Source: Candidatus Omnitrophota bacterium
GTDB lineage: Bacteria > Omnitrophota > Gorgyraeia > Duberdicusellales > 4484-171
Assembly (NCBI GenBank): GCA_021735655.1
Contig: JAIPGM010000002.1
Span: forward strand, 224,001-288,000
DNA length: 64,000 nucleotides
Direction of reading: 5' to 3'
Of this stretch, positions 6,666-44,642 are shown piece after piece; the stretch's first letter is position 1, and every line of letters starts with the position of its first letter. The notes beneath the pieces were generated by a model. The model was not told the origin of the DNA, did not search any database, and worked only from the letters and a program-made list of their open reading frames with translations. The translations under genes and the position numbers were made by a program.

Positions 6666-7726
6666 AAGCAAGAATTAAAAAGTGCTCGCAATTAATGCGC
6701 AAAAGCGGTTACGAAGCGCTTTTTGTTTCGGACCCTTTGAATCTTGCGTATCTAACTGGATCTCGAGAAGTTGAAGGGTACCTTCTCATTTCCACCAAAA
6801 ACAAACCGATTTTTTTTACCAATTTTATATATCAAACAACGGCTAAAAAGTTGAGCGATTGCAATCTTGTTATTGCTAAGCAAGCTGAAAGCACCTTTAA
6901 ACTTGTTGCCGACTGCGCTGCCCGCTTAAAAATTAAACGTCTTGGCTTCGAGGCTCAAAGTTTTAATTTTAAACAATATCAAAAACTCAAATTTTTGCTG
7001 ACCGAGAAGAAAATAAACTGCTTGATAACTGATGGTTTAATCGAAAATCTACGGGCAATCAAAGAGCCCGATGAGCTCAAACTAATAAAGAAATCAATCC
7101 AAATTAGTGAAGAAGCTTTTCAATTTGCCAGGGAAATATTTGAAGGTTCAATGAGTGAAAAAGGGCTAAAGATTGAGCTGGAGCGTTTTTTAAGGCTCAA
7201 AGGAGACAATGAAATTGCCTTTAGTTCAATCGTTGCTTCTGGTAAAAATACAGCCTTTCCGCATCATTGCTCGAATGAAACGATAATTGGTAATAAATTT
7301 TTCCTAATTGACTTAGGTTCAAAATATTATGGATATTGCGCTGACTTGACAAGGGTATTCTTCTGCGGTAGAATGCCCCTTCTTTTTAGAAAAATACACG
7401 ATACAGTACGAAAAAGCCAAGCTCAGGCTATAGCAAAAATCAAAGCTGGGGTTAGAGCTTGTGATGTAGATAGTACAGCACGCAAAATAATCGATAAACA
7501 AGGCTGGGGAAAATATTTTGGACATAGTTTAGGGCACGGCGTTGGAATGGCCGTACACGAAGCACCCCGAATTGGACCAAAAAACACCACCGTGCTAAAA
7601 GAAGGTATGGTGGTTACAATCGAGCCGGGTATTTATTTAAATAATAAATTCGGCATCCGACTAGAAGATATGGTGTTGGTAAAAAAAGATAAGTCAGAGG
7701 TGTTGAGTGGGCATGGTAATTGGTGA
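6662..7726 (+). CDS. M24B Xaa-Pro aminopeptidase/dipeptidase
   Basis: HSLGHGVGMAVHEAP and GMVVTIEPGIY metal-binding motifs are present, together with an N-terminal creatinase-like domain. Confidence 0.75.
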   Translation: MKARIKKCSQLMRKSGYEALFVSDPLNLAYLTGSREVEGYLLISTKNKPIFFTNFIYQTTAKKLSDCNLVIAKQAESTFKLVADCAARLKIKRLGFEAQSFNFKQYQKLKFLLTEKKINCLITDGLIENLRAIKEPDELKLIKKSIQISEEAFQFAREIFEGSMSEKGLKIELERFLRLKGDNEIAFSSIVASGKNTAFPHHCSNETIIGNKFFLIDLGSKYYGYCADLTRVFFCGRMPLLFRKIHDTVRKSQAQAIAKIKAGVRACDVDSTARKIIDKQGWGKYFGHSLGHGVGMAVHEAPRIGPKNTTVLKEGMVVTIEPGIYLNNKFGIRLEDMVLVKKDKSEVLSGHGNW

Positions 7727-8267
7727 GTTAAGGCCAGGAATGGCTATTATTTATAACGATCAGCTTTATTTATTAATTAACTGCGAGCACACCAAAATTG
7801 CTAGAGGCCCGGCCTTCTGTCGAGCAAGGTTAAGAAATTTAAAAACTGATCAGGTGCTTGAGCGAACTTTGCGTGATTCTGACAATGTTGAACCGGCTTT
7901 TATTGAAAAACGTAAACTTCAATATCAGTACCATCAAGACGACCAGTACCACTTTATGGACTTAGAAACCTATGAAGATCTTTTATTGCATAAATCGCGA
8001 ATTGCCGATAAATCTTTTTGGCTAGTAGACAACCTGGAGCTGGTCGGTCTTTTTTACGATAATAAACTTATTGATTTAGAATTTCCGCCTTCTTTAATAT
8101 TTAAAGTTACTGAAACTGATCCTGGATTTAGAGGCGATACAGTTAAACAAGGCACTAAGCCGGCAACACTTGAAACCGGATTGGTTATTAATGTGCCGAA
8201 TTTCATAAATAGCGGTGAAAATATTAGGGTGAATACAAAAACTAAGGATTATTTGGGCCGAGCATAA
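7713..8267 (+). CDS. efp: Elongation factor P
   Basis: LLINCEHTKIARGPAFCRARLRNLKTDQ matches the EF-P KPGKG-loop region, and the protein has the three-domain EF-P length. Confidence 0.85.
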   Translation: MVIGELRPGMAIIYNDQLYLLINCEHTKIARGPAFCRARLRNLKTDQVLERTLRDSDNVEPAFIEKRKLQYQYHQDDQYHFMDLETYEDLLLHKSRIADKSFWLVDNLELVGLFYDNKLIDLEFPPSLIFKVTETDPGFRGDTVKQGTKPATLETGLVINVPNFINSGENIRVNTKTKDYLGRA

Positions 8268-22312: not shown

Positions 22313-22335
22313 ACCGAATATAGGTTTATTAAGCG

Positions 22336-22701
22336 TTGCGGCTAATAAAATCAATAGTTGGAAGAGCTAATATGGATGAAAGACGGCAATACCCCAGAGT
22401 AAACATTTCTCTCCCAGTCGAATGTAAAATGTTACCCTCGCGGGACTATTTCTATACAGTAAGTAAGGATTTAAGTCAGGTAGGCTTAAAGATTGTAAGT
22501 AACGAATTTATGCCTAAGAATGAGCTTTTAAAATTAAGTTTGAATCTGATCAACAAGATGCTTGATGTTAAAGCTAGGGTAGTTTGGTGCAGCCAGGAAC
22601 GTGCTTCGGAGAGATACTCGGCTGGCGTTGAGTTTGTGGAAATTGAAGATCACTCGCGCAATGAACTTACCGCATTTTTAGCTACAACCGAAAACTCATA
22701 A
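22336..22701 (+). CDS. PilZ domain protein
   Basis: The RRQYPRVNIS (RxxxR) motif and the VSKDLSQVGLKI (DxSxxG) motif are present. Confidence 0.6.
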   Translation: MRLIKSIVGRANMDERRQYPRVNISLPVECKMLPSRDYFYTVSKDLSQVGLKIVSNEFMPKNELLKLSLNLINKMLDVKARVVWCSQERASERYSAGVEFVEIEDHSRNELTAFLATTENS

Positions 22702-22846: not shown

Positions 22847-22852
22847 ACCTTA

Positions 22853-23203
22853 ATGAAAGAGCGACGAAAATCAACGCGCATCAATAAGGTTCTTTCGGTG
22901 AAGCTATCGGATTCTGAATTTGATATTTTAACCGAAACTAAAAATATTAGCGCAACCGGTGCCTATTGTCCAGTTTCAAAACCACTGGACCTGATGACTA
23001 AACTACGCTTGGTGCTTCTAATCCCAATTCAAAAAAATCGCACGAAAACGATAAAGAAAATAAGTTGCGAAGGTATCGTTGTGCGACTTGAAACGACTAA
23101 AGACAAAGGAAAATACCCTTATCGTGCTGGAATATTCTTTAACGAAATTAATGATCAGGATAAGAAGTCGCTCCTCTCTTATATACAGTCCTCATTAAAA
23201 TAA
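22853..23203 (+). CDS. PilZ domain protein (second copy)
   Basis: An N-terminal RRKSTRINKV motif and an ISATGAYC segment are present. Confidence 0.55.
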   Translation: MKERRKSTRINKVLSVKLSDSEFDILTETKNISATGAYCPVSKPLDLMTKLRLVLLIPIQKNRTKTIKKISCEGIVVRLETTKDKGKYPYRAGIFFNEINDQDKKSLLSYIQSSLK

Positions 23204-26340: not shown

Positions 26341-27744
26341 TTAATCTTCTCTTATAATTTCAATAAGAGCCTCCACCACCTGTGGATTAAATTGAGACCC
26401 TTTACTTTCATTTAAGCGCTCGATTGCCTCTGCAACTTCCATAGCCGGCCGATAGGCTCGGACTGAAACCATGGCATCATAAGCATCAGCAACTGAAATA
26501 ATTTGCGTACAAATATCCATTTTTTTACCCTCAATTTTATCAGGATATCCTTTTCCATCGTAGCGTTCGTGATGAGAACGAACAATCGTCAATAACTGCT
26601 CATCAAAGGCCACTGGTTTTAAAATGTGCTCACCGATTATTGGGTGATTTCTGATTATTTCCCATTCTTCTTCGGTAAGACGGGTCTTTTTGTTTAGTAT
26701 GTTTTTCTGAATGCTGAGCTTTCCAATGTCATGAAGCTCAGCGGCTCGCTTAAGTAATTCTATCCTTTCGGGAGATAATTTCATTTTTTGGCCGATTTTT
26801 TCGGCATATTCAACAACCCGATCAGAATGTCCGTGAGTATAGGGATCCTTAGCCTCAAGAATTCGAATTAAAGCCTGCATTGCCCGATAAAAATAATCAC
26901 GCATTTTGTTTTGGGATTTAGATAAACTCTTAGCCATAGTATTAAAAGATTGAGCTAACTCACCAATTTCATCATGCCCCTTAATACTAACTTGATATTC
27001 TAGCTCACCATTAGCTAGATGATGGGTACCTTCGACTAATCTCTCAATACGATCGGTAATTCGCCAAGAAATAATCATGCCCAAAACCACTGAGAGCATA
27101 ATACCGACGATAAAAACTAACATGGCTCGGTTGTGGACTCGCTTGCGCAAATTATAAACCGAATCAGCCATAATATCGACTCCTAACATGGCTATAGCTT
27201 GACCGGCTTGATTAATTATCGGTGCATAACCTGACAAAGTGGCCCCCCACTCATCAATTTCTAACTTTGTGTCAGCCGACGGCCCATCAAAAGCTTTCAA
27301 CATTTCCGGAAAACGTGAGGCATCATATTTGTCACCCGGATAAGAAGTAAGTCCTTGCTCTATATCCTCGGGTGTATAGCCTGAAGGATCAACAATAAAT
27401 TGCCATACCCCCTCCTCTTCTGTCTTAGCTAAGGTATAAATATATTTAATTTGAGGGTTGACAGATCGAACCTTGTTCAGTTTTTCAGCAATTACTTTAA
27501 AATTTTCAGTCTGTATGCCCTTCTTATTTAACGGTATTTGAATGAGCTTATCCGGGTCAACCAGTAAAGCCGCGGTTTGAGCTATGATCTTAAGTTTATC
27601 GCGCAAATCATTAAACTGGCTATTTAAAGTGTATTTATAGATTAGGAAATTACTGAGGGTTCCAGAAAGAAGCATACAAAAAATAAAGGCCAAAGTAACC
27701 TTTACTTGAAAACCACGCAGTGGCTTAAAGGTAATCCGTTTCAT
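26341..27744 (-). CDS. Membrane sensor: periplasmic domain, TM, HAMP, then HD-GYP phosphodiesterase
   Basis: A HAMP region is followed by HDIGKL and HHERYDGKGYP. An N-terminal TM helix and a second TM helix precede the HAMP region. Confidence 0.75.
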   Translation of the reverse strand: MKRITFKPLRGFQVKVTLAFIFCMLLSGTLSNFLIYKYTLNSQFNDLRDKLKIIAQTAALLVDPDKLIQIPLNKKGIQTENFKVIAEKLNKVRSVNPQIKYIYTLAKTEEEGVWQFIVDPSGYTPEDIEQGLTSYPGDKYDASRFPEMLKAFDGPSADTKLEIDEWGATLSGYAPIINQAGQAIAMLGVDIMADSVYNLRKRVHNRAMLVFIVGIMLSVVLGMIISWRITDRIERLVEGTHHLANGELEYQVSIKGHDEIGELAQSFNTMAKSLSKSQNKMRDYFYRAMQALIRILEAKDPYTHGHSDRVVEYAEKIGQKMKLSPERIELLKRAAELHDIGKLSIQKNILNKKTRLTEEEWEIIRNHPIIGEHILKPVAFDEQLLTIVRSHHERYDGKGYPDKIEGKKMDICTQIISVADAYDAMVSVRAYRPAMEVAEAIERLNESKGSQFNPQVVEALIEIIRED

Positions 27745-27808: not shown

Positions 27809-30790
27809 TTAAAACATTTCGATAACCAAAGTAAATTTATCTACCAGTTCAGGATCAAATTGAGTCCCAGAACATCTTCTTATTTCTGCAACAGCTTCTT
27901 CTTTGCTCACGCCTAGGTGATAAGGACGAACATTAGTCATAGCATCATAGGAATCTAAGATAGTAAGTATTCTGCACTCTAAGGGTATTTGTTCCCCTTT
28001 TAATCCAGTCAAATAACCCTTACCATTCCACCACTCATGATGGTAAAGAATCAAATTTGCAATATGCGATAATTCTTTAGAACGGCTAGCTATGATATGG
28101 CCGATCTTTACATGTTCCTTCATTTTTTCATATTCTTTTTCCGATAGTCTTTTTGGTTTAAATAAGATTTTATCCGGTATTCCTACCTTACCTAAATCAT
28201 GCATTTTAGCTAAAAGATCAAGGTTTCTTTTCTCATTGTCAGAAAGAGCTATAGCATCGGCCATTTTATCGGCCAAGACTGAAAGTCTCTCTAGGTGACC
28301 CTGAGATATAAAGTCTCTTTCCGATAAAGCAGCTACTAGCATCTCGATAACCTTATTTTCAGGAATTTCAGGCTTAGCTGAGCGATCCTCATACATATTA
28401 TCGTCGGCTCGCTGATAAACATCATAAACGGTTTCTTTTCCGGTATCTTGAGCGGTGGCCACACCAATTGAGATATGCATCGGGACTACTGGTTTCTTAC
28501 TATTATAAATATTGATTAACTTTTTTATTTTATCTCGTTTAACTAAGGCTTCCTTATAATCAACCTGTGGCAATATAATACAAAACTCATCACCACCAAC
28601 TCGAGCAATCAAATCCATCTTTCTAAAAGGAGTAGTTATGACCTTGGTTGCTGCGACTAATAACTTATCACCACTTTTATGGCCAAAGGTATCATTAACT
28701 AGTTTCAGCCGATCGATATCCAAAGATAAAATACTTAAAGGTAATGAACGGGAAAAATCTTTGCTTAAACGAGCCATCTCCTCAGCAAAAAAGGCACGAT
28801 TATAAATACCGGTGAGCGGATCATAGGAATTAACGTATTTAAGATGCTGCTCGCTTTGTTTTAATAACCTCTCGGCCCTTACGCGTTTTGTGATATCGCG
28901 GATATTGCACTGAATAATTTTCTTACTTCCAACCAAATAAAGACTACTAATTAGTTCAACCTCTACCTTTTCACCATTTTTTTTCTCAAGAGTCAAATTA
29001 TCATAGCGTAGGCTTTTTTCACTCCTTAGTTTTTTAAAAGCTTGCCAAGCAGTGTCATTGTTCTTTGCAAACCCAAGATTGCAAAACTCATTACCAATAA
29101 TTTCCGATTCTGAGTAACCCAACATATTGACTAAGGCTGGATTAACGGCAATTATTTTTTTCGACAAGACATCAATGATCATCATACCATCGCAAGCAGT
29201 TTCAAAAAGACGACGATAGCGAGATTCCGAAGATTGTAGGGCCCTCTCTGCTTTCTTTCGCTCAGTAATATCACTATGTACCTCAACTGCAATTCTACCA
29301 CATTCCGAATGATCAATCAGTGAAGACTTTACATAACACCAAATACGAGCCCCATCCTTCTTTATGTTTTCGACCTCCCCTTTCCATTCGCCTTCCTTTT
29401 TTAAAATAAGTGCAATTTTATCCTTAATTTCCTTAGGGGTTCTATTGCCTGGAGCATTAATTACCGAGATGTCCTTGCCAATCAGCTCCCCGGATTTATA
29501 ACCAAACATTTTTTCAAATTTAGAATTTGCAGAAATAATCTTGGCATCACGCAAACAAACTAAAACAACCCCTTCGGCTAGATTTTTCATTACTTCATTG
29601 TTAATGACCAACTCATTTTGGATTTTTTGTTTTTCGGTAACATCTTCTCCAGAGCCTAATGTTGAAATAATTTTCCCGTCATTGTCACGTAAAAATGAAT
29701 TATGCCAACCAATGATTCTTTTTTCTCCAGAAGCAGTCAAAACGTTGTTTTCGAAATATTCAACCGGAGCCAATTCCCCAGAAATAAGCTGACTATATAC
29801 TTCTTTAACTTTAGCCCTTTCATCTTCAGGAATAAAATTATCAAACCAATTTTTTCCAATAATTTCTTGTTCAGAATAACCTAATATTTCACATCCCTTT
29901 TTATTGATTAGGCTGACTTTCTGATCAGAATCAATCACGATAATTATGACATTGGCAATTTTAAGATATTCCTGAATGCGCGCCTTTTCCCCCTTTATAT
30001 CTTTTAGGGCTTTTCTCTGCTCATCAATATCTTGCACTTGAAAAACAAAATACAAAGGCCTACCGTCAACACCACAAACTAATGAAGCAGTTAAAAGAAT
30101 CCAGATTACTTCTCCGTCTTTGCGAACATAACGTTTTTCAATGCAATAATAAGGTAAACTCCCCTTTAGCATCTTCTCAACGTAATCGATCTCAATGCCG
30201 ATGTCCTCAGGATGAGTTATTTCCTGAAAATTACTACTTAATAATTCTTTCTTCGAATAGCCTAAGATTGAACACAAAGATTTATTAACTTTTAAAAAAG
30301 TACCATTAGGCTCAACTAAAGCTATGCCGATTCCGGAAACCTCAAACATAGTTTTAAAACGCGATTCACTTTCGTTTAAAGAATGGATTAATTCTTGATT
30401 TTTGGTGGCGTCTTGAAAGATACCTTGGACTACCGGTTTGCCACCAGAAAAAGTTAACAAAGTAGTTATCAAGACTGGTTTTACTTCTCCGGTTTTAGTT
30501 ATTATCTCTGCCTCGCGGATAATTTCCCCATTTTGCTTTATCAGCCGTTTAAACATTTTAACGTATTCTTGGGATTTCTCAGGCGGATGGATTGAAGACT
30601 GGTGCATTCCAATAAGTTCTTTTCTTTTTCTGGCAAAAAGATTTTCAGCGGCCTTGTTACACTCTATGATTAAACCAGATTCAGCTTCGGCCCAAAGGAT
30701 AGCAACTCGTGTATTATCGATTAAGGATTTTTTTAACATAAAACCGCCAAAAATAAAAAAAGCGTCAGTTTTTCTAACGCTTTTGAACAT
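27809..30790 (-). CDS. Multidomain c-di-GMP turnover protein: about four PAS/PAC domains, GGDEF, HD-GYP
   Basis: Repeated PAS-like blocks are present, along with the intact GGDEF site RVGGDEFCIIL and the C-terminal HD-GYP motifs MHDLGKVGIPD and HHEWWNGKGYLTG. Confidence 0.8.
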   Translation of the reverse strand: MFKSVRKTDAFFIFGGFMLKKSLIDNTRVAILWAEAESGLIIECNKAAENLFARKRKELIGMHQSSIHPPEKSQEYVKMFKRLIKQNGEIIREAEIITKTGEVKPVLITTLLTFSGGKPVVQGIFQDATKNQELIHSLNESESRFKTMFEVSGIGIALVEPNGTFLKVNKSLCSILGYSKKELLSSNFQEITHPEDIGIEIDYVEKMLKGSLPYYCIEKRYVRKDGEVIWILLTASLVCGVDGRPLYFVFQVQDIDEQRKALKDIKGEKARIQEYLKIANVIIIVIDSDQKVSLINKKGCEILGYSEQEIIGKNWFDNFIPEDERAKVKEVYSQLISGELAPVEYFENNVLTASGEKRIIGWHNSFLRDNDGKIISTLGSGEDVTEKQKIQNELVINNEVMKNLAEGVVLVCLRDAKIISANSKFEKMFGYKSGELIGKDISVINAPGNRTPKEIKDKIALILKKEGEWKGEVENIKKDGARIWCYVKSSLIDHSECGRIAVEVHSDITERKKAERALQSSESRYRRLFETACDGMMIIDVLSKKIIAVNPALVNMLGYSESEIIGNEFCNLGFAKNNDTAWQAFKKLRSEKSLRYDNLTLEKKNGEKVEVELISSLYLVGSKKIIQCNIRDITKRVRAERLLKQSEQHLKYVNSYDPLTGIYNRAFFAEEMARLSKDFSRSLPLSILSLDIDRLKLVNDTFGHKSGDKLLVAATKVITTPFRKMDLIARVGGDEFCIILPQVDYKEALVKRDKIKKLINIYNSKKPVVPMHISIGVATAQDTGKETVYDVYQRADDNMYEDRSAKPEIPENKVIEMLVAALSERDFISQGHLERLSVLADKMADAIALSDNEKRNLDLLAKMHDLGKVGIPDKILFKPKRLSEKEYEKMKEHVKIGHIIASRSKELSHIANLILYHHEWWNGKGYLTGLKGEQIPLECRILTILDSYDAMTNVRPYHLGVSKEEAVAEIRRCSGTQFDPELVDKFTLVIEMF

Positions 30791-36649: not shown

Positions 36650-37708
36650 TTACTTTGTCAGATGAACAGTCTGAGTAGGAAAAGCAAATTCAATCTTTTT
36701 CTTCTCAAATTCACCCTTAATGCCCAGGTTTATCTCTTGTTGAATATCCATATATTTATTATAATCACTGCTAAGCACGTAATAGACTACCTCAAAAATA
36801 AGATTAAACTCACCATAAGAAAAGAAATGAGCTCGATCCAAAGTGGCACCCTCAACACCTTCAATTATCTCCCCAATAATCTTAGGTATTTCTTTTAACT
36901 TAGAAAGAGATGTGTCATAAGTAGTACCCAGCTGAAACATCACTCTTCGTTTCTGCATTCGCTTATAATTACGTAAGCGAGAATCCGTCAAATCAGAGTT
37001 AGAAAAAACTAGCTGTTCGCCGCCTAAACTGCGAATTCGAGTAGTTTTAATTCCAATGTTTTCTACTGTTCCCAAAAGATCGCCAACAATAACAAAATCG
37101 CCAACTTCAAAGGGACGGTCAAAAATAATTGAAAAATAACTAAATAAATCCTTTAGAACTGCTTGGGCAGCCAAAGCAATGGCTACACCACCAATACCCA
37201 ACCCGGCAATAACCGTTGATATTTTAAAACCTAAGTTGTCTAAATAGAAAATAATAGCCAGGGCCCAAATAATAAACTTAGTAACCCTCAAAACACCCTC
37301 TAGACTATTCTTTAAAGTTTCACTGCGCCTAGACTTTCGCCAATAAACATCTAAACTATAGGTAATTATACGAATCAATAAACGGACCGTAAAAAAAGTT
37401 ATTAGCGCCATCACTAGAACGCCTAGGCCGCGATTAACCTGTTCACTTAAGGTCAAGGTTTTAAGACTTAAGTAGAAGGCCGCAAGGTAAAAAATCGGAA
37501 TAGCTATTTTCTCAATAATTTCAGCTAAGAAATCATCAATACTAGTAAGCGTCTTTGCAGCTAAACTTCTGAGTTTTTTTAAAATGATGAGCTCGAATAT
37601 CTTTATTACAACACAAGCTAACAGGAATGCACCAATATGAACAATATAATCCTGTAATGAGTTGCCAAGTATAATGTACTCTGAAAATTCTTGCATAGTT
37701 ACCCCCAA
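36650..37708 (-). CDS. Mechanosensitive ion channel family protein (MscS-like)
   Basis: N-terminal TM helices precede an MscS beta-domain region, FEVGDFVIVGDLLGTVENIGIKTTRIRSLGGEQLVFSNSDL. Confidence 0.8.
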   Translation of the reverse strand: MGVTMQEFSEYIILGNSLQDYIVHIGAFLLACVVIKIFELIILKKLRSLAAKTLTSIDDFLAEIIEKIAIPIFYLAAFYLSLKTLTLSEQVNRGLGVLVMALITFFTVRLLIRIITYSLDVYWRKSRRSETLKNSLEGVLRVTKFIIWALAIIFYLDNLGFKISTVIAGLGIGGVAIALAAQAVLKDLFSYFSIIFDRPFEVGDFVIVGDLLGTVENIGIKTTRIRSLGGEQLVFSNSDLTDSRLRNYKRMQKRRVMFQLGTTYDTSLSKLKEIPKIIGEIIEGVEGATLDRAHFFSYGEFNLIFEVVYYVLSSDYNKYMDIQQEINLGIKGEFEKKKIEFAFPTQTVHLTK

Positions 37709-37727: not shown

Positions 37728-38921
37728 TTAATTTTCCGAAATCGAATACCGAACTTTAGATTTTTGTATTTCCAAAGTGCTAGCCAGTTCGGTTTCAGTT
37801 ACAAACCCGAGTTCTTTTAAAATTTCTCCAAGCATAATTCCTCTTTTCCAATGAATTAAAAGAGCTTCATCGAGCTGATTTTGAGAAATTGCCTTTCGTT
37901 CAATTAATATCTGACCTAAAGGTTTATCATTGGTTGTCTTTCGATGATAGATTTCCGGTGTTGCGTCTTTATTTGTTTTGGTGTCACGACGATCAACCAT
38001 AAATTTGCTCTCAGGGATAGTTTTGAGGTAACGCTTTATTTCGGTAACTTTTTCATTAAGCTGAATCATATTTTCGATACCAGAAGTGTACTCTCGATTG
38101 ACTACGGCAATCGAAATTGTCATCAAAGGTGTATTTGTTAATTTACGAGTTCGATCGCGATTAACCACAAAACCTTGGTTGCGATCTATTTCAGAGTAAT
38201 GAAAAGGAATAATCGTATCGAAACTTTTAATAAAATTGTGGCATATTTGTGCGTATTTATCCATGGTGCTGATAAAAACAAAATCATCTCCTCCAATATG
38301 ACCGATAAAATCATCAGAATTTCCGAATTTTTTTACCGCGTCAATTAACAAGTGAGTTGTATGAAGAATTACTCCGTCACCTTTACGGTAGCCATAGACA
38401 TCATTGAAAGATTTAAAATTATCAATATCTAAATAAGCAAATGAAAATGGTTTTCCAGTTTTAAACTTTTCATTTAAGGCATCCTCAAATATTTTAGCAC
38501 CAGGAAGACCAGTTAAGGAACTCGCATAAATACTGTGTTGGGCGCGTCTTGCAGCCATTTCAATTCGAATACGTAAATCAAGCGGGTCTGGTGGTTTTAT
38601 CAAATAATCATCGACTCCTTGCTTTAGACTTAATAATTGAGCGCGTAATTGCCGCTTATTGATTAAAGTTATGACCGGAGTAAAAGCAGTGGCAAAATTT
38701 TCTTTTAAAAGCCGACACATGGCTAATTGTTCTTTACGGGCTGATTGAATATCAATGACTATGACATCAGGGGAAATTCTTTTTATTTTTTCGATATCTT
38801 GCGGTTGAGTAAATTCACGTAGGAAAACTTCGTATCCCCAACCGTCAAAACAAAAGCGCAGAACCTCTTTTAATTGACTATCCGAAGAGATAATTAAAAT
38901 TTTATGTATAGTATCAATCAT
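37728..38921 (-). CDS. Response-regulator receiver, GGDEF-like (GGDDF) domain, and C-terminal T2SSE_N/MshEN-like domain
   Basis: The N-terminus has REC features, and the GGDEF-like site reads IGHIGGDDFVFI. The C-terminus GQILIERKAISQNQLDEALLIHWKRGIMLGEILKELGFVTETELASTLEIQ has the GspE-N/MshEN pattern. Confidence 0.6.
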   Translation of the reverse strand: MIDTIHKILIISSDSQLKEVLRFCFDGWGYEVFLREFTQPQDIEKIKRISPDVIVIDIQSARKEQLAMCRLLKENFATAFTPVITLINKRQLRAQLLSLKQGVDDYLIKPPDPLDLRIRIEMAARRAQHSIYASSLTGLPGAKIFEDALNEKFKTGKPFSFAYLDIDNFKSFNDVYGYRKGDGVILHTTHLLIDAVKKFGNSDDFIGHIGGDDFVFISTMDKYAQICHNFIKSFDTIIPFHYSEIDRNQGFVVNRDRTRKLTNTPLMTISIAVVNREYTSGIENMIQLNEKVTEIKRYLKTIPESKFMVDRRDTKTNKDATPEIYHRKTTNDKPLGQILIERKAISQNQLDEALLIHWKRGIMLGEILKELGFVTETELASTLEIQKSKVRYSISEN

Positions 38922-38929
38922 TTAAACTA

Positions 38930-41900
38930 TTATACCACTTTCTTCTGTTCCTCAATTATTTTTTGGGCTATTTCCTTTGGTACCTGGGTGTACTTTTTAA
39001 AATGCATTGAGCAACTTGCCCGGCCACTAGATAAAGACCTAAGATTGGTTACGTAACCAAACATTTCCGAAAGTGGAGCCTCAGCCGAAATTAGCTTTTG
39101 GTTACCTTTTGAATCCATACCTAAAATTTTCCCCCGACGCGCACAAAGATAACCAACAATACCACTAGTATGCTCTTCTGGAGTAAGTACTTCCAAGCTC
39201 ATGCAAGGCTCAAGAAGAACCGGACTCGCTTTTAAAAAAGCGTTTTTAAAGCAAGTTCTTGCAGCAATTTTAAACGCTAACTCTGAAGAATCAACTTCAT
39301 GGTATGAACCATCAACGAGCTTTACCTTAACATCGACCACCGGATAACCGGCATAAGAACCTTTTTTCATTGCTTCAATAATACCTTTCTCAACTGCCGG
39401 TATATAGTTTTTAGGTATTGCTCCACCTTTAATGCTATCTTTAAATTCAAAACCAGCAGCTTCTTCATTAGGAGAAAGCTCAATCGCTACGTGGCCGTAT
39501 TGGCCTCTGCCTCCGCTTTGCTTAGCATGTTTATACTCTTCGCTAGTAGACTGAAGGATTGTTTCTTTATAGGCAACTTTAGGCTGACCGGCCTGCGCTG
39601 AAACCTTAAATTCTTCCTTCAAACGTTCAACGATTATTTCAAGATGTAATTCTCCCATACCAGAAAGAATTGTTTCAGAGGTTTCCTCGTCGGTATGAGC
39701 GTTAAAAGTGGGGTCTTCTTCTGCTAGTTTAGCTAAACCCTTGGCCATCCTATCCTGATCGGAACGACTCTCCGGTTTTATGCTGATTGAAACGACTGGC
39801 TCAGAAAATTCAATTGACTCAAGTAATATTGGATTTTGAATGTCAGAGAGTGTATCGCCGGTTAAAGTGGAACTGAGACCGACAATTGCCGCAATATCAC
39901 CGGCAAACACTGCGTCAACATTTTCTCGTTGGTTAGCATGCATTCGAACAATTCTCCCGATACGCTCTTTTTTATTTTTAGTTGCATTTAAAACATAAGT
40001 TCCGGCCCTTAAGCATCCCGAATAGATTCGAGCATAGATCAATTTACCTACATGCTGGTCAGCTTGGACCTTAAAAGCAAGCGCTGAAAAAAATTCATCA
40101 TCTTGAGGCTTACGTTCCAAGCTTTTTTCTTTATCATCGGGGTCAGAACCAATAACTGGCGGAATTTCAGCCGGAGAAGGTAGATAGGCAACAACTGCAT
40201 CAAGCAAGTCTTGAACACCCTTATTTTTTAATGCTGACCCGCAAAAAACCGGAACAATCTTATTTGAAACTGTAGCTTTGCGCAAAGCCTCAGTCAGATC
40301 GTCTTTGCTGATTGACTCCTCTGACTGTAAGTATTTTTCCATTAATTTACCATCATAAGAGGCTACCCGATCAACCAAACTATGGCGGTATCTTTGAGCG
40401 ATTTCTTTATAGCTTTCATGAATATCTTCCGACCTAATATCTTTGCCTAAGGATTCGTCATTATAAAGATGCATTTTCATATTAATAAGATCAATTATGC
40501 CTTTAAAGTCACCTTCCTTACCGATCGGTATCTGTAAGGCAACTGGTTTAGCCCCAATAGTATTTTCGATCTCTTCTAAAACCTTAAAAAAATCAGCCCC
40601 GACCCGATCCATTTTATTTATAAAGGCTATCTTCGGTACATGATATTTATCCGATTGGCGCCATACGGTTTCAGTTTGAGACTCTACTCCTCCCACCGCA
40701 CAAAATACAGCAACTGCCCCATCTAGGACCCTTAACGATCTTTCAACTTCAGCGGTAAAATCAACGTGGCCGGGGGTATCAATAATAGTAATTTGGCAAT
40801 CTTTCCAACTACAAGTGGTTGCAGCTGAAGTTATAGTTATACCTCTTTCCTGTTCTTGTTTCATCCAATCCATCTGAGCTGCCCCGTCATGAACTTCGCC
40901 GATTTTGTGCGACCGGCCGGTATAGAAAAGAACTCTTTCAGTAAGAGTAGTTTTCCCAGCATCAATATGGGCCATAATCCCAATATTACGGATCTTGCCC
41001 AGTTCTATTTTTCTCTCCGGCAGTGGCTCCTCTACTTTTTTTACTGCTTCAGGCTTAGGCTCGGCTTGTATTTCTGGTTCTTGAGCCGATAGCTCCGGAG
41101 TCACTTCTTCACTTGCGGTTTCAGGTTGCCCTTGGGTCAAATCTTTAGTTTCACCTTCCTGCCCTTGGATTAAAGATTCGTCTTCCTTTAGCGATTCTTT
41201 ATCTGAAGGTAACTCTTCAAATTCCTTAGTTTCTGAAATAGGTTCACTTGGCTGCGCCTGAACTAACTCATTCTCAAGATTGGAAGATTCTTTTTGAGAA
41301 TCACCGTCCTCAATTAAAAGAATATCTGCTAACTCATCGTCCTTAATAACGCCGCTTCGTTTAATCTCGCGTAATTTATTAAGAATACGAATCCGCTCCT
41401 GATCAATTTTTTCGATATCTTTACCTTTTAGCTCCAACTCCTTAGATTTAATCTCTAACTCATTTTTTAATTCTTCACTTTGTTCTTCTAAAAGAGAGTA
41501 CTCTTCTTTAGATACCCATTCGCTTTGACGTTGTTTTTCTTTCATTTGAGCAACTTCAGCAGCATGTGCGACAGTTTCTTTAGATAGCTGGTGCATTCTT
41601 TGAGTCTGATCTTTTAGCTCACTTTCCAAAGAAATAATCTTATCTTTCAATTGATTGATATTGACTTCACGAATTTTGATTACTTCTTCAGCTTGATCAA
41701 GTTCTTTTTTAAACTGCACACTCCGGGAAAACTCTTTCTCTAAATCCTTTTCCTTAGTAATCAATTTAACTCTCAAAGCCTCATAGGGACCTTTTCCTTT
41801 TTTCAAAGTAAGCTGCTGACTATTAAGCCATTTTTTATTGCGGTTAATTTCCTCGCCCAATTCTTTAGCCTTGAGGCTAAGCTTTTGATGCTCATCTTGC

Positions 41901-42139
41901 AAGCTGAGATACTCAGCCTGAGTTTTTGTTAAGGCGACAATTTCATTTTTTAATTTTGTTAGTTCCCTTTTTGAAGATTTAAGGTTTTCTGACAAGGCAG
42001 AAATTTTTTGTTGTTGCAAGTCAGGCTTAAGGCCAAACTTTGTACCCAGAGTACCTTTTAAAACTGAATCATCTTCGTTGTTAACTAAATACAGTACTAG
42101 GGCAATCGATACTCCAATTACAACAAAAATTAAAGTCAT
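38930..42139 (-). CDS. Elongation factor G paralog with ~370-aa N-terminal extension (TM helix, coiled coil, acidic linker)
   Basis: Residues ~375-1069 form a complete EF-G: [15 protein letters not shown] (G1), DTPGHVDF (G3, catalytic His retained), NKMD (G4), a G-prime insert, and domains II-V. The N-terminus [19 protein letters not shown] is hydrophobic. Residues ~40-260 are heptad-rich and K/E-rich, and residues 270-370 form an E/P/Q-rich linker. No ATG/GTG/TTG lies near the junction. Confidence 0.8.
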
Positions 42140-43922: not shown

Positions 43923-44642
43923 CTATTCCTGTGCCGAATGAGTTGTATGTTTTTCAACAAAAAGTACTATTTTTTCTTGAATTTCAGGATTTATGTCATT
44001 AAATTCAAGCCCCATACCGGGAAAATCTTCCGGCTGTATCTCTTGGTCAGAAATCCAGACTATTTTAGCATCAACTTCAAGTGTACCTGGTTCAGGAATT
44101 AGGTGTATTCGAGTATGTAATAAATCACCCATTGAAAATAATTTTTGGGCAGCTACAAAAACTCCATCCCCGCTTAAATTGATAATTTTTCCGCTATAGA
44201 ACTCATCTTGACTAGAAAACTTCTGTCGGTATTCAATACTGGAGTTAAACGGTATTCGTTTAAAGCGTCGACGAAACTGACTGTCTGATGACTCAATGAT
44301 ATTCTTTTCTTCCTTAATCTTCTTTATCGCATGATCTTCGGTAACATGATATTCAAAGATTCGATCTAAACCTACGATTGAAAATAATTTCATTACATGG
44401 GAGGGAACATTGCATAGCTTCATTGCTCCCTGATGATTCGATACATTTTTATAAATTACGGCAATAAGTGATATGCCTACATAATCAATTAAATTAACAC
44501 CTTCAAAATTACAAATGACGTTCTTGGATTTATTACTAAGAACCCAGCCAACAGTTTCAACAAAATTAGAGGCATTGATATCAATATTCCCTTCTAGGTC
44601 CAAAATGGCCATGCCCTCTTTTTCACGAATATCTATCTTCAT
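43923..44642 (-). CDS. STAS (anti-sigma-factor antagonist-like) domain fused to C-terminal PilZ domain
   Basis: The N-terminus MKIDIREKEGMAILDLEGNIDINASNFVETV is SpoIIAA-like. The C-terminus RRRFKRIPFNSSIEY...GDGVFV carries PilZ motifs. Confidence 0.55.
   Translation of the reverse strand: MKIDIREKEGMAILDLEGNIDINASNFVETVGWVLSNKSKNVICNFEGVNLIDYVGISLIAVIYKNVSNHQGAMKLCNVPSHVMKLFSIVGLDRIFEYHVTEDHAIKKIKEEKNIIESSDSQFRRRFKRIPFNSSIEYRQKFSSQDEFYSGKIINLSGDGVFVAAQKLFSMGDLLHTRIHLIPEPGTLEVDAKIVWISDQEIQPEDFPGMGLEFNDINPEIQEKIVLFVEKHTTHSAQE

Follow-up and report, generated by a model that had tools for sequence, protein, structure and literature searches.

Can a response regulator whose cyclase domain carries an altered active-site motif still synthesize c-di-GMP, and what would control it when a probable receptor for the same molecule sits at its C-terminus? 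This question is raised by a gene for a 397-aa protein in a 64,000-nucleotide stretch of a Candidatus Omnitrophota contig (the whole stretch is referred to below as the window). The initial annotation, made from the sequence alone, described a receiver, a GGDDF domain and an MshEN-like domain in that order, and matches from Pfam, NCBIfam, profile and Foldseek searches confirmed this order. The gene and its parts are as follows.

37728..38921, minus strand: whole gene, REC-like - GGDEF(GGDDF) - MshEN_N, 397 aa (ORF list)
38547..38906, minus strand: receiver-like domain, residues 6-125 (sub-threshold Pfam Response_reg match, column counts, modelled fold)
37986..38525, minus strand: GGDEF domain of a divergent 'GHIGGDDF ... 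DRR' subfamily, residues 133-312 (Pfam, Foldseek, invariant residues)
38310..38321, minus strand: position of the RxxD inhibitory site, reading NSDD, N201..D204 (translation)
38280..38294, minus strand: GGDDF active-site motif, residues 210-214 (translation; 118/120 homologues)
37923..37985, minus strand: variable linker, residues 313-333, low confidence (poorly conserved columns, pLDDT)
37764..37922, minus strand: MshEN_N domain, residues 334-386, 53 residues (NF053729, MshE alignment, Foldseek)

The gene starts with ATG, and its stop codon occupies 37728..37730 on the minus strand. Its product is 100% identical to a protein (P0001) named 'diguanylate cyclase [Candidatus Omnitrophica bacterium]'. 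The 120 homologues used for residue counts share 59-100% identity with it, and nearly all are 385-416 aa long (two are shorter and partial). The AF2 model of the full protein has a mean pLDDT of 84, and its best structural matches in Foldseek are WspR, PleD and DgcR (3BRE, 2V0N and 6ZXB); proteins of this type are also the best PDB sequence matches.

Conservation of the GGDDF cyclase domain

The middle domain matches Pfam GGDEF (PF00990) at 1e-13 and 51.8 bits, above the gathering score of 23.8 and in line with the initial call, with the match confined to profile positions 5-90 of 161. In Foldseek, isolated GGDEF domains align with it over 173-190 columns, most with target-normalised TM-scores of 0.66-0.80. 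An hhalign comparison with the canonical GGDEF domain of the window aligned only the first 86 columns and gave no alignment for the C-terminal half. The motif at residues 210-214 reads GGDDF, not GG[DE]EF, and the replacement of the signature Glu by Asp noted in the initial annotation is thus real.

Conservation was then read residue by residue. Invariant positions among the 120 homologues are D165, D167, K170, N173, D174, G181, D182, H208, G210-D213, K296, K300, R311 and R312, while F214, and with it the complete GGDDF motif, is kept in 118. Alignment to PleD equates D165 with the metal-binding D327, and N173 and D182 with the guanine-binding N335 and D344. All 80 proteins of a set spanning many phyla have D165, N173, K296 and K300, and 75 of them have D182; because the 80 genome loci were found with the pattern [GS]HIGGDDF, H208 and GGDDF are necessarily present in all of them and are not counted as evidence. 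The invariant K296 and K300 were matched to the phosphate-binding PleD K442 and R446 by eye only, the region being unaligned by Pfam and hhalign.

The RxxD inhibitory site lies five residues before the motif and is frequent, not obligatory. The tetrapeptide NSDD, which we take to occupy this position from its register against PleD 'RAIDLPCRYGGEEF', lacks the Arg: N201 is found in 113 of the 120 homologues and D204 in all.

The initial annotation had concluded that GGDDF likely reduces or abolishes activity. If the domain were catalytically dead, the protein would serve as a receptor or adaptor for c-di-GMP, sensing it through MshEN_N and perhaps also through the GGDEF domain and signalling by protein contact, for example with a STAS-PilZ protein or another partner. 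Such a reading could draw on the altered fourth motif residue, on H208 where canonical enzymes have an Arg before GGDEF, on a C-terminal half so divergent that neither Pfam nor hhalign aligned it, and on the STAS-PilZ genes that adjoin MshEN-bearing homologues in several lineages; PA3258, a GGDDF-EAL protein, has no cyclase phenotype as summarised in PMC8835794. We nevertheless consider it unlikely. D165, N173, D182, D212 and D213 are invariant among the 120 homologues, and the retention of the first three across phyla at ~30% identity would be unexpected without catalysis. Receptor GGDEF domains normally keep the RxxD site, which is absent here. Moreover, the motif marks a multi-phylum family, and the Geobacter GGDDF enzyme GSU1937 is active in vivo (PMC8835794). 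Judging from its conservation, GGDDF is a hallmark of the family and not a sign of decay, and the domain has most likely remained a diguanylate cyclase that uses GTP. Because Asp is kept at the position of PleD D344 (D182), where the cGAMP-making GSU1937 has Ser, GTP/GTP use is predicted.

The C-terminal MshEN_N domain

MshEN is a c-di-GMP receiver that drives pilus and secretion ATPases or glycosyltransferases. In the present protein, a poorly modelled linker (the pLDDT of residues 311-320 averages 57) leads into a tail composed of motif I (334-357), a 5-residue spacer (WKRGI, 358-362) and motif II (363-386), with the sequence PLGQILIERKAISQNQLDEALLIH-WKRGI-MLGEILKELGFVTETELASTLEIQ. The tail matches the NCBIfam model NF053729 ('c-di-GMP_motif, MshE-related') over its full length (1-53 of 53; E=3.3e-15, 55.6 bits against a cutoff of 38). 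Profile alignment to Vibrio cholerae MshE residues 5-61 required no gaps and placed the two 24-residue motifs in register. Against PDB sequences, the tail profile retrieved PilF at 3.6e-15 and MshE (5HTL) at 1.2e-8, and identity to the MshE and PilF domains is 37-41%. The AF2 model of the tail comprises four helices with a core pLDDT >90 and lies closest to c-di-GMP-bound MshE and PilF GSPII-B, with rmsd values of 0.5-0.7 Å over 56-57 columns (0.7 Å for 5HTL, 0.6 Å for 8PDK). The Foldseek probabilities are 1.00; owing to the shortness of the domain, the E-values are weak (2.7e-3 and above). The likeness to GspE/MshE N-terminal domains seen initially is therefore upheld, and on these alignments the tail is a homologue of the c-di-GMP-binding N-terminal subdomain of MshE/PilB/GspE.

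Two expectations attached to this domain in the initial annotation did not hold. First, the absence of a PF05157 (T2SSE_N) match had been regarded as fatal to the architecture. A Pfam scan of the 397-aa protein gave no such match, which is to be expected because the model is limited to the second MshEN subdomain (MshEN_C / T2SSE_N1) and the protein, ending 11 residues past the motif, does not have it; PF05157 was consequently rejected as an architecture test. In the long-form relatives L006, L009 and L023, PF05157 matches at residues 388-486, only after the 53-residue motif. Second, MshEN domains had been said to lie normally at the N-terminus of secretion ATPases and not at the C-terminus of a response regulator, but the MshEN of Escherichia coli NfrB is C-terminal, and Wang et al. 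2016 list REC-MshEN_N proteins, Bd2402 among them (Suppl. Table 4).

Within the tail, P334, G336, Q337, L350, L354, H357, W358, G365 and L383 are invariant in the 120 homologues. By profile alignment, the two Leu triads of MshE are represented by L335/L350/L354 and L364/L379/L383, its G11 and G40 by G336 and G365, and its Q61 by Q386; these leucines and glycines are conserved in 100-120 of the 120 homologues. Binding depends most on the two triads and on the Gly at position 3 of each motif, and mutation of MshE G11 or G40 abolishes it (PMC5013675). The motif consensus has Arg at position 1, Gly at position 10 and Gln at position 24, for which motif I has P, K and H and motif II has M, G and Q. 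In MshE numbering, R9 is thus replaced by P, G18 by K/N/Q and Q32 by an invariant His, and the R38 position is hydrophobic.

These departures, together with an invariant, family-specific H357-W358 pair, would suit a tail that no longer binds c-di-GMP and instead serves in dimerisation or docking as a small helical module, or one that recognises another nucleotide such as cGAMP, which MshEN can also bind according to a passage of PMC5013675. Binding has been lost in the MshEN homologues XpsE (PMC5013675) and PilF GSPII-A, in the latter of which a His at the Q32 position is among the changes that need reversion, and a good MshEN consensus is no guarantee of binding (PMC12002112). However, proven binders tolerate such changes at motif position 1: PilF GSPII-B binds at 6 nM with K or L there, GSPII-C at ~0.46 µM with P in one motif, and a hydrophobic residue raises affinity (PMC11731258). 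In addition, all six triad leucines, both position-3 glycines and the equivalent of Q61 are conserved while the linker and the end of the tail vary freely, and the NF053729 score exceeds its curated cutoff. A non-binding tail therefore appears doubtful, and we infer that the domain is a c-di-GMP receptor.

Probable degeneration of the receiver domain

The initial annotation had also named a receiver (PF00072). Pfam Response_reg does match residues 8-120, but at 27.9 bits the match falls below the gathering score of 30.2. NCBIfam response-regulator models match the region partially, and the AF2 model shows (beta-alpha)5 secondary structure. The phospho-acceptor D57 and K109 are each kept in 120/120 homologues. 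The acidic Mg2+-binding pair D12/D13 is absent (S12 in 119 and S13 in 105 of the 120), as is the switch Thr/Ser87 (I87 in 119). Because S12, S13 and I87 stand in place of the acidic pair and Thr87, the domain is probably a pseudo-receiver; some phosphorylation is possible, D57 and K109 being kept.

An ordinary phosphorylation-controlled cyclase of the PleD/WspR type, with a tail of minor accessory role (e.g. localisation) that leaves activity unaffected, would accord with the invariant D57 and K109, with the overall fold match to WspR, PleD and DgcR, and with a parent family that has canonical receivers and, in 44 of 80 loci, a large neighbour cluster seemingly including histidine kinases (by sequence inspection only), but it is highly improbable given that three of the five canonical receiver residues are replaced throughout the clade, that the Response_reg match is sub-threshold, and that strong purifying selection on the tail motif points to a specific ligand or partner.

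Family and phyletic distribution

The short form of the family consists of ~310-aa REC-'GHIGGDDF' proteins found in multiple phyla. MshEN or MshEN_N tails on GHIGGDDF proteins occur almost only in Omnitrophota loci, where the proteins have either a full MshEN domain (480-503 aa) or just MshEN_N (397 aa). At receiver positions 12, 13, 57, 87 and 109, the short form has D, D, D, T and K and the 397-aa form S, S, D, I and K, while long-form proteins have a mixed set. Gain of the MshEN tail thus appears to coincide with loss of the receiver residues D12, D13 and T87 (to S, S and I). The 397-aa protein is a member of a conserved Omnitrophota family that derives from a widespread REC-GGDEF response regulator.

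Combination of the two domains is rare in the collections searched. A Pfam census of the 97 top MshEN_N-containing representatives found GGDEF in only two, the 405-aa REC-GGDEF protein P0170 and one other; the underlying tail-profile search of the representative library was dominated by proteins with 3-8 tandem MshEN_N repeats and says little about the size of the family. The long-form MshEN tail gave 19 matches in a set of 5.8 billion proteins, mostly fragments and too few for sizing the long-form clade; one had both PF05157 and PF00990. No GGDEF-MshEN fusion was described in the literature searched, including work on c-di-GMP in Omnitrophota, and Suppl. Table 4 of Wang et al. 2016 lists no architecture with both domains. 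The protein is built from known domains; their combination, GGDEF with a C-terminal MshEN_N, is the part that is new relative to the literature searched.

Comparison with known systems

The protein resembles PleD, WspR and DgcR in the succession of receiver, helical linker and GGDEF domain and in its guanine- and metal-binding residues. It differs from them in reading GGDDF instead of GG[DE]EF, in having His instead of Arg before the motif, in lacking RxxD as well as D12, D13 and T87, in its divergent second GGDEF half, and in the additional C-terminal MshEN_N. The tail shares with the MshEN of MshE and with Thermus PilF GSPII-B/C a 53-residue module of two 24-residue motifs, a 5-residue spacer and a four-helix bundle. 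Whereas theirs lie at the N-terminus of a type IV pilus or T2SS ATPase, this one lies C-terminally on a cyclase, lacks MshEN_C (T2SSE_N1 / PF05157) and has P, K and H in motif I in place of R, G and Q.

NfrB offers a functional parallel in that a C-terminal MshEN controls an N-terminal enzyme domain and a cyclase and an MshEN receptor are coupled locally; the long-form relative L023 matches the NfrB model NF008411 over the MshEN region. In NfrB, however, a glycosyltransferase is activated by c-di-GMP from a separate cyclase, DgcJ, while in the present protein cyclase and receptor are parts of one polypeptide. Bdellovibrio Bd2402 (REC - MshEN_N - unknown) likewise joins a receiver to an MshEN_N without the second subdomain, but neither it nor the other MshEN_N-only proteins of Suppl. 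Table 4 have a GGDEF domain. GSU1937, a Hypr GGDEF protein, shares the GGDDF variant; unlike the present protein with Asp at D182, it has Ser at the PleD D344 position, makes cGAMP, has other N-terminal domains and carries no MshEN.

A proposed model of control by c-di-GMP

With moderate confidence, we propose that the protein is probably an active cyclase whose control has moved from phosphorylation to c-di-GMP sensing through the tail, by which the enzyme may monitor its own product. The ancestor would have been a REC-GGDEF two-component response regulator with the GHIGGDDF active-site variant, to which an Omnitrophota lineage would have added a C-terminal MshEN receptor domain. In the clade of the window, MshEN would have been cut down to the 53-residue nucleotide-binding MshEN_N on a flexible linker of ~20 residues, and the receiver would have lost its Mg2+-binding acidic pair and switch Thr in a protein whose GGDEF domain has no RxxD site. 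Binding of c-di-GMP, whether made by the protein itself or by other cyclases of the cell, would then alter the way in which a dimer brings its two GGDEF domains together. Other c-di-GMP enzymes encoded in the window suggest that the ligand would be available. The outcome would be product feedback, most simply negative (a direction that is purely inferred), substituting for the missing I-site, and c-di-GMP would supplant phosphorylation as the main regulatory input.

A pseudo-receiver joined to a high-affinity MshEN_N could also work in the opposite sense: if binding activates, the protein would form a self-amplifying c-di-GMP relay, perhaps with the STAS-PilZ protein, and would act as a bistable switch or as an amplifier for the other cyclases of the cell. 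We think this improbable.

To our knowledge, almost the only known route for product feedback on a diguanylate cyclase is the RxxD I-site. A fusion of this kind would offer an alternative route to cyclase autoregulation and, if the proposed feedback is correct, would represent cyclase control distinct from the I-site and the first MshEN known to regulate the synthesis of its own ligand. A conserved natural cyclase-MshEN fusion would also be hard-wired local c-di-GMP signalling, and the missing I-site and lost phosphorylation pocket strengthen this case. The protein contains only known domains, comes from an uncultured organism and has functions predicted from sequence; at 397 aa and soluble, it would be a compact model for how a 53-residue MshEN_N passes ligand binding to an adjoining domain. 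Furthermore, it draws attention to an uncharacterised, multi-phylum 'GHIGGDDF' response-regulator family.

Genomic neighbourhood

Three neighbouring genes were considered.

38930..42139, minus strand: EF-G with a 375-aa N-terminal extension, 8 nt upstream; context only (ORF, Pfam, NCBIfam)
36650..37708, minus strand: MscS-type mechanosensitive channel, 19 nt downstream; context only (Pfam MS_channel)
43923..44642, minus strand: STAS-PilZ protein, ~5 kb upstream (Pfam STAS + PilZ)

The initial annotation had placed an extended EF-G paralog 8 nt downstream. The gap of 8 nt is real, but because both genes are on the minus strand, EF-G lies upstream, 5' of the gene. Nor does 'paralog' seem to fit: the protein passes the equivalog model TIGR00484 at 1051.7 bits against a cutoff of 659.4 and has the appearance of a genuine EF-G extended at its N-terminus, not of a divergent paralog. 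Synteny with EF-G is kept in L081-83 and L086, the sublineage of the window, and not in L084, L085, L002 or L005; the linkage was rejected as a functional clue since it is confined to that sublineage, and EF-G is probably outside the REC-GGDDF-MshEN_N system. No terminator-like site was found between the two genes, and a promoter and terminator scan gave matches at background level. The order with the MscS gene is kept in L001, L081-83 and L086.

Clustering of neighbours across the 80 loci produced large clusters of genes that lie next to many short-form genes and that, by sequence inspection only, look histidine-kinase- or FIST-like. Apart from STAS-PilZ, it yielded no partner specific to the 397-aa form. 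STAS-PilZ is a possible functional partner because it adjoins MshEN-bearing homologues in other lineages, namely L085 (at 3 nt), L003 and L009. The genome also encodes further c-di-GMP enzymes and receptors: the window contains a 5xPAS-GGDEF-HD-GYP protein, two HD-GYP proteins and three PilZ proteins.

A predicted c-di-GMP receptor domain at the C-terminus

Domain searches and structural modeling together assign the window protein a receiver–GGDEF–MshEN_N architecture. Pfam GGDEF matched at 1e-13 over profile positions 5–90 of 161, Response_reg scored 27.9 bits, slightly under its gathering score of 30.2, and PF05157 gave no match in the Pfam scan of this protein. The NCBIfam model NF053729 ("cyclic di-GMP-binding domain, MshE-related") matched residues 334–386, hereafter the tail, over all 53 model positions (55.6 bits; cutoff, 38 bits; E = 3.3e-15). 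In the AlphaFold2 model (mean pLDDT 84, pTM 0.77), the receiver has the (beta-alpha)5 form and the GGDEF fold is complete; a linker modeled with low confidence then leads to four C-terminal helices. Foldseek with the whole model returned WspR, PleD, and DgcR as top matches, and isolated GGDEF domains aligned over 173–190 columns with target-normalised TM-scores mostly of 0.66–0.80. The REC–GGDDF–MshEN-like architecture proposed in the initial annotation is thus borne out by Pfam GGDEF, NF053729, and AlphaFold2 with Foldseek.

A tail profile built from 32 family members was run against PDB sequences and retrieved PilF (3.6e-15) and Vibrio cholerae MshE (5HTL; 1.2e-8), the latter aligning without gaps across MshE residues 5–61.

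Residue correspondence between the tail and MshE (tail = MshE)
Motif I: P334 = R9; L335 = L10; G336 = G11; K343 = G18; L350 = L25; L354 = L29; H357 = Q32
Motif II, after a spacer of 5 residues in both: M363 = R38; L364 = L39; G365 = G40; G372 = G47; L379 = L54; L383 = L58; Q386 = Q61

Modeled separately, the tail core exceeded pLDDT 90; the best PDB matches to this tail model were MshE in its c-di-GMP-bound state (41% identity, rmsd 0.7 Å over 56 columns) and PilF GSPII-B (0.5–0.6 Å). Together with NF053729, these profile and structural matches support the probable c-di-GMP receptor first proposed, which we retain as a predicted one. Across the family, P334, G336, Q337, L350, L354, H357, W358, G365, G372, L383, and Q386 are invariant or nearly so, whereas linker 313–333 and the final 11 residues vary freely, which indicates selection on the MshEN_N motif itself.

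In MshE, affinity falls more than tenfold when any conserved hydrophobic residue is mutated; G11L and G40I leave little or no binding, and charged-residue changes cost less than fivefold (Wang et al. 2016, PMC5013675). By alignment, all of these critical residues (the conserved hydrophobics and both glycines) are present in the tail, which deviates in motif I by P at position 1, a polar residue for Gly10, and the invariant His for Gln24, and in motif II by a hydrophobic residue at position 1. PilF GSPII-B, whose two position-1 sites carry K and L, has an affinity of 6 nM, a hydrophobic residue there being proposed by those authors to predict very high affinity, and GSPII-C, which has P at one of these sites, binds at ~0.46 µM (PMC11731258). 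GSPII-A, a non-binder, combines His at the motif I Gln position with a motif II that has degenerated, and a return to the consensus did not by itself bring binding back (PMC12002112). On balance, the comparison leans towards c-di-GMP binding by the tail.

Long forms and the reach of PF05157

Long forms of 480–503 aa, 31–40% identical to the window protein, occur in five deeper-branching loci of other genomes (L006, L007, L009, L023, and L033, the last cut at a contig end), four labelled Omnitrophota/Omnitrophica and one from another MAG. A His at the MshE-Q32 position is common to the long and 397-aa forms. In the long forms the C-terminal MshEN domain is complete (NF053729 plus PF05157): PF05157 lies at residues 388–486 in L006, L009, and L023, immediately past the 53-residue motif, and in L023 NF053729 covers residues 335–386, with further matches to the PilB and NfrB models across the entire MshEN region. 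Since PF05157 matches only past the motif, the current Pfam model is that of the second (MshEN_C / T2SSE_N1) subdomain. Of the two subdomains, the window protein has only the first, nucleotide-binding one, so a missing PF05157 match, initially regarded as decisive against the architecture, is inapplicable here. The 397-aa form looks like a trimmed derivative of the long form.

GGDDF as a family hallmark

GGDDF is found in 118 of the 120 closest homologues, in which D165 and D167 (the DxD of DIDNFKxFND), K170, N173, D174, G181-D182, H208, K296, K300, R311, and R312 are invariant too. Alignment with PleD equates D165 with the metal-binding Asp and N173 and D182 with the guanine-binding Asn and Asp; Asp182 predicts GTP, not ATP, as the substrate. 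Beyond its first half, the domain has diverged too far to be aligned with canonical GGDEF sequences, the canonical Arg before the motif is replaced by His (H208), and K296 and K300 are matched by eye only as equivalents of the phosphate-binding residues.

One genome per GTDB species was then scanned with the pattern [GS]HIGGDDF, which found at least 595 relatives, of which 80 were kept. They span Omnitrophota, Clostridia/Bacillota, Elusimicrobiota, Gemmatimonadota, Eremiobacterota/Vulcanimicrobiota, Acidobacteriota, Chloroflexota, and others, and most are ~310 aa, with a receiver, "GHIGGDDF", and a C-terminal "...DRR". HIGGDDF invariance in this set is imposed by the search pattern; outside it, all 80 keep D165, K170, N173, D174, G181, K296, and K300, and 75 keep D182. 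GSU1937, a GGDDF enzyme, is active, although no cyclase phenotype was seen for PA3258, another GGDDF protein (PMC8835794). This conservation marks GGDDF as a family hallmark, not decay. Given the motif, the invariant binding residues, and the activity of GSU1937, the initial view of a weak or dead cyclase is not upheld, and the window protein is fairly likely to be catalytically competent.

The ~310-aa proteins (L008, L010–L080) form a multi-phylum group of apparently uncharacterised response regulators with invariant GHIGGDDF and a '...GSxYVxDRR' C-terminus, matched by no dedicated Pfam or NCBIfam model. Many of their genes adjoin histidine-kinase-like and FIST-like genes, as judged by sequence inspection only. 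Three of the 80 relatives share with cGAMP-making Hypr GGDEFs a Ser at the position of PleD D344.

Eroded controls and a proposed mechanism

At what we take, from the PleD register, to be the RxxD position of the I-site, the window protein has the sequence NSDD; N201 occurs in 113 of the 120 homologues. The three forms were aligned to compare canonical receiver positions.

Residues at receiver positions 12, 13, 57, 87, and 109 (counts in brackets)
Short form (n = 69): 12, D (51); 13, D (58); 57, D (69); 87, T/S (58); 109, K (56)
397-aa form: 12, S; 13, S; 57, D; 87, I; 109, K
Long form (n = 5): 12, E (4), D (1); 13, D (2), K (2), P (1); 57, D (3), S (2); 87, T (2), I (2), V (1); 109, K (3), N (1), R (1)

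Of the 120 homologues closest to the 397-aa form, 119 have S12, 119 have I87, and 105 have S13. MshEN gain coincides in these alignments with an apparently eroded phosphorylation machinery, and from this joint phyletic pattern we infer that regulatory input may have moved from phosphorylation to c-di-GMP.

In a dimeric GGDEF enzyme, both catalytic domains must meet; in PleD, WspR, and DgcR, receiver phosphorylation governs this meeting, and c-di-GMP at the I-site prevents it. Both controls appear eroded in the window protein, and a predicted high-affinity c-di-GMP module lies on a flexible tether beside the catalytic domain. Under the simplest reading, ligand on the tail would reposition or immobilise the GGDEF domains and so provide product feedback. 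Alternatively, the tail might exert positive feedback or dock to a partner in a c-di-GMP-dependent manner. Product feedback is the reading we prefer, and we infer its steps beyond the architecture and conservation. The protein is small and soluble, making these ideas directly testable, and they should be moderately interesting to c-di-GMP specialists.

Rarity of the fusion

Wang et al. list ATPases, glycosyltransferases (NfrB, with a C-terminal MshEN), REC, HD-GYP, CheA, CheX, adenylate cyclase, kinase, and peptidase domains as MshEN/MshEN_N partners; GGDEF is absent from the list (PMC5013675). NfrB runs against the earlier expectation that MshEN is normally N-terminal, not C-terminal. At E <= 1e-3, the tail profile retrieved 7917 cluster representatives (clusters at 50% identity), and a Pfam scan of 97 high-scoring ones found GGDEF in only two (P0170, a 405-aa REC-GGDEF protein, and one other). 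Searches for GGDEF-MshEN fusion names and related terms, full text included, returned no description of the architecture. Within the literature searched, the GGDEF-MshEN_N architecture therefore appears undescribed. Its domains are of known kinds, databases already list the fusion proteins under the name "diguanylate cyclase", and NCBIfam can detect the tail domain.

Many proteins consist of 3–8 tandem MshEN_N-like repeats (P0140–P0147 and others; P0140 has seven matched stretches in 394 aa). DUF4388 (PF14332) matched 70 of the 97 top representatives scanned, which suggests that this model overlaps the MshEN_N motif.

Gene neighbourhood and candidate partners

Genes for c-di-GMP turnover and reception are dense within the 64-kb window (Pfam domains).

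27809..30790 (-), 5xPAS-GGDEF-HD-GYP protein, 993 aa
17917..18957 (+), HD-GYP protein
26341..27744 (-), HD-GYP protein
22333..22698 (+), single-domain PilZ protein
22847..23200 (+), single-domain PilZ protein
43923..44642 (-), STAS-PilZ protein

The two further HD-GYP proteins are one HAMP-HD-GYP and one single HD-GYP. The GGDEF, HD-GYP, and PilZ genes point clearly to active c-di-GMP turnover and reception in this organism. The immediate neighbours are as follows.

37728..38921 (-), window protein gene, 397-aa ORF with ATG start
38930..42139 (-), EF-G, 1069-aa ORF, upstream neighbour, 8-nt gap
36650..37708 (-), MscS-type channel, downstream neighbour, 19-nt gap
further downstream, 291 nt on (-), M48 peptidase

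ORF coordinates 38921 and 38930 agree with the 8-nt spacing first noted; EF-G, then called downstream, lies upstream because the shared minus strand places it 5' of the gene. A 100% identical protein is already public as "diguanylate cyclase [Candidatus Omnitrophica bacterium]". The best 120 homologues (59–100% identity; nearly all 385–416 aa, covering at least 92% of the query), mostly from Omnitrophica/Omnitrophota MAGs, are, where named, usually called "diguanylate cyclase", and in a few cases GGDEF-domain protein or OmpR-family response regulator.

The order EF-G, window gene, MscS, M48 is retained in L081–83 and L086 (81% and 60% identity) and lost in L084 and L085, at similar distance, and in L002 and L005. 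In L085, just 3 nt separate the homologue from a STAS-PilZ gene downstream of it (7230-7952); a STAS-PilZ gene also lies about 580 nt upstream in L003 (6717-7424), about 260 nt downstream in L009 (9224-9943), and about 5 kb from the window gene in the window's lineage; it was found in 0 of 69 short-form loci. STAS-PilZ, which joins an anti-sigma-antagonist-like domain to a c-di-GMP receptor, may be a functional partner of the MshEN-bearing response regulator, and its recurrence beside MshEN-bearing homologues across several Omnitrophota lineages, set against the patchy EF-G order, makes it the better candidate.

The EF-G has a 375-aa N-terminal extension in which a long coiled coil and a low-complexity acidic stretch accompany a predicted transmembrane helix. 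No Pfam model matches the extension; the remainder passes the EF-G equivalog TIGR00484 (1051.7 bits). Relatives of 1038 and 1054 aa also have the extension, 56% and 36% identical in that region, and it is therefore no ORF-calling artefact. If membrane-tethered, this EF-G would be unusual.
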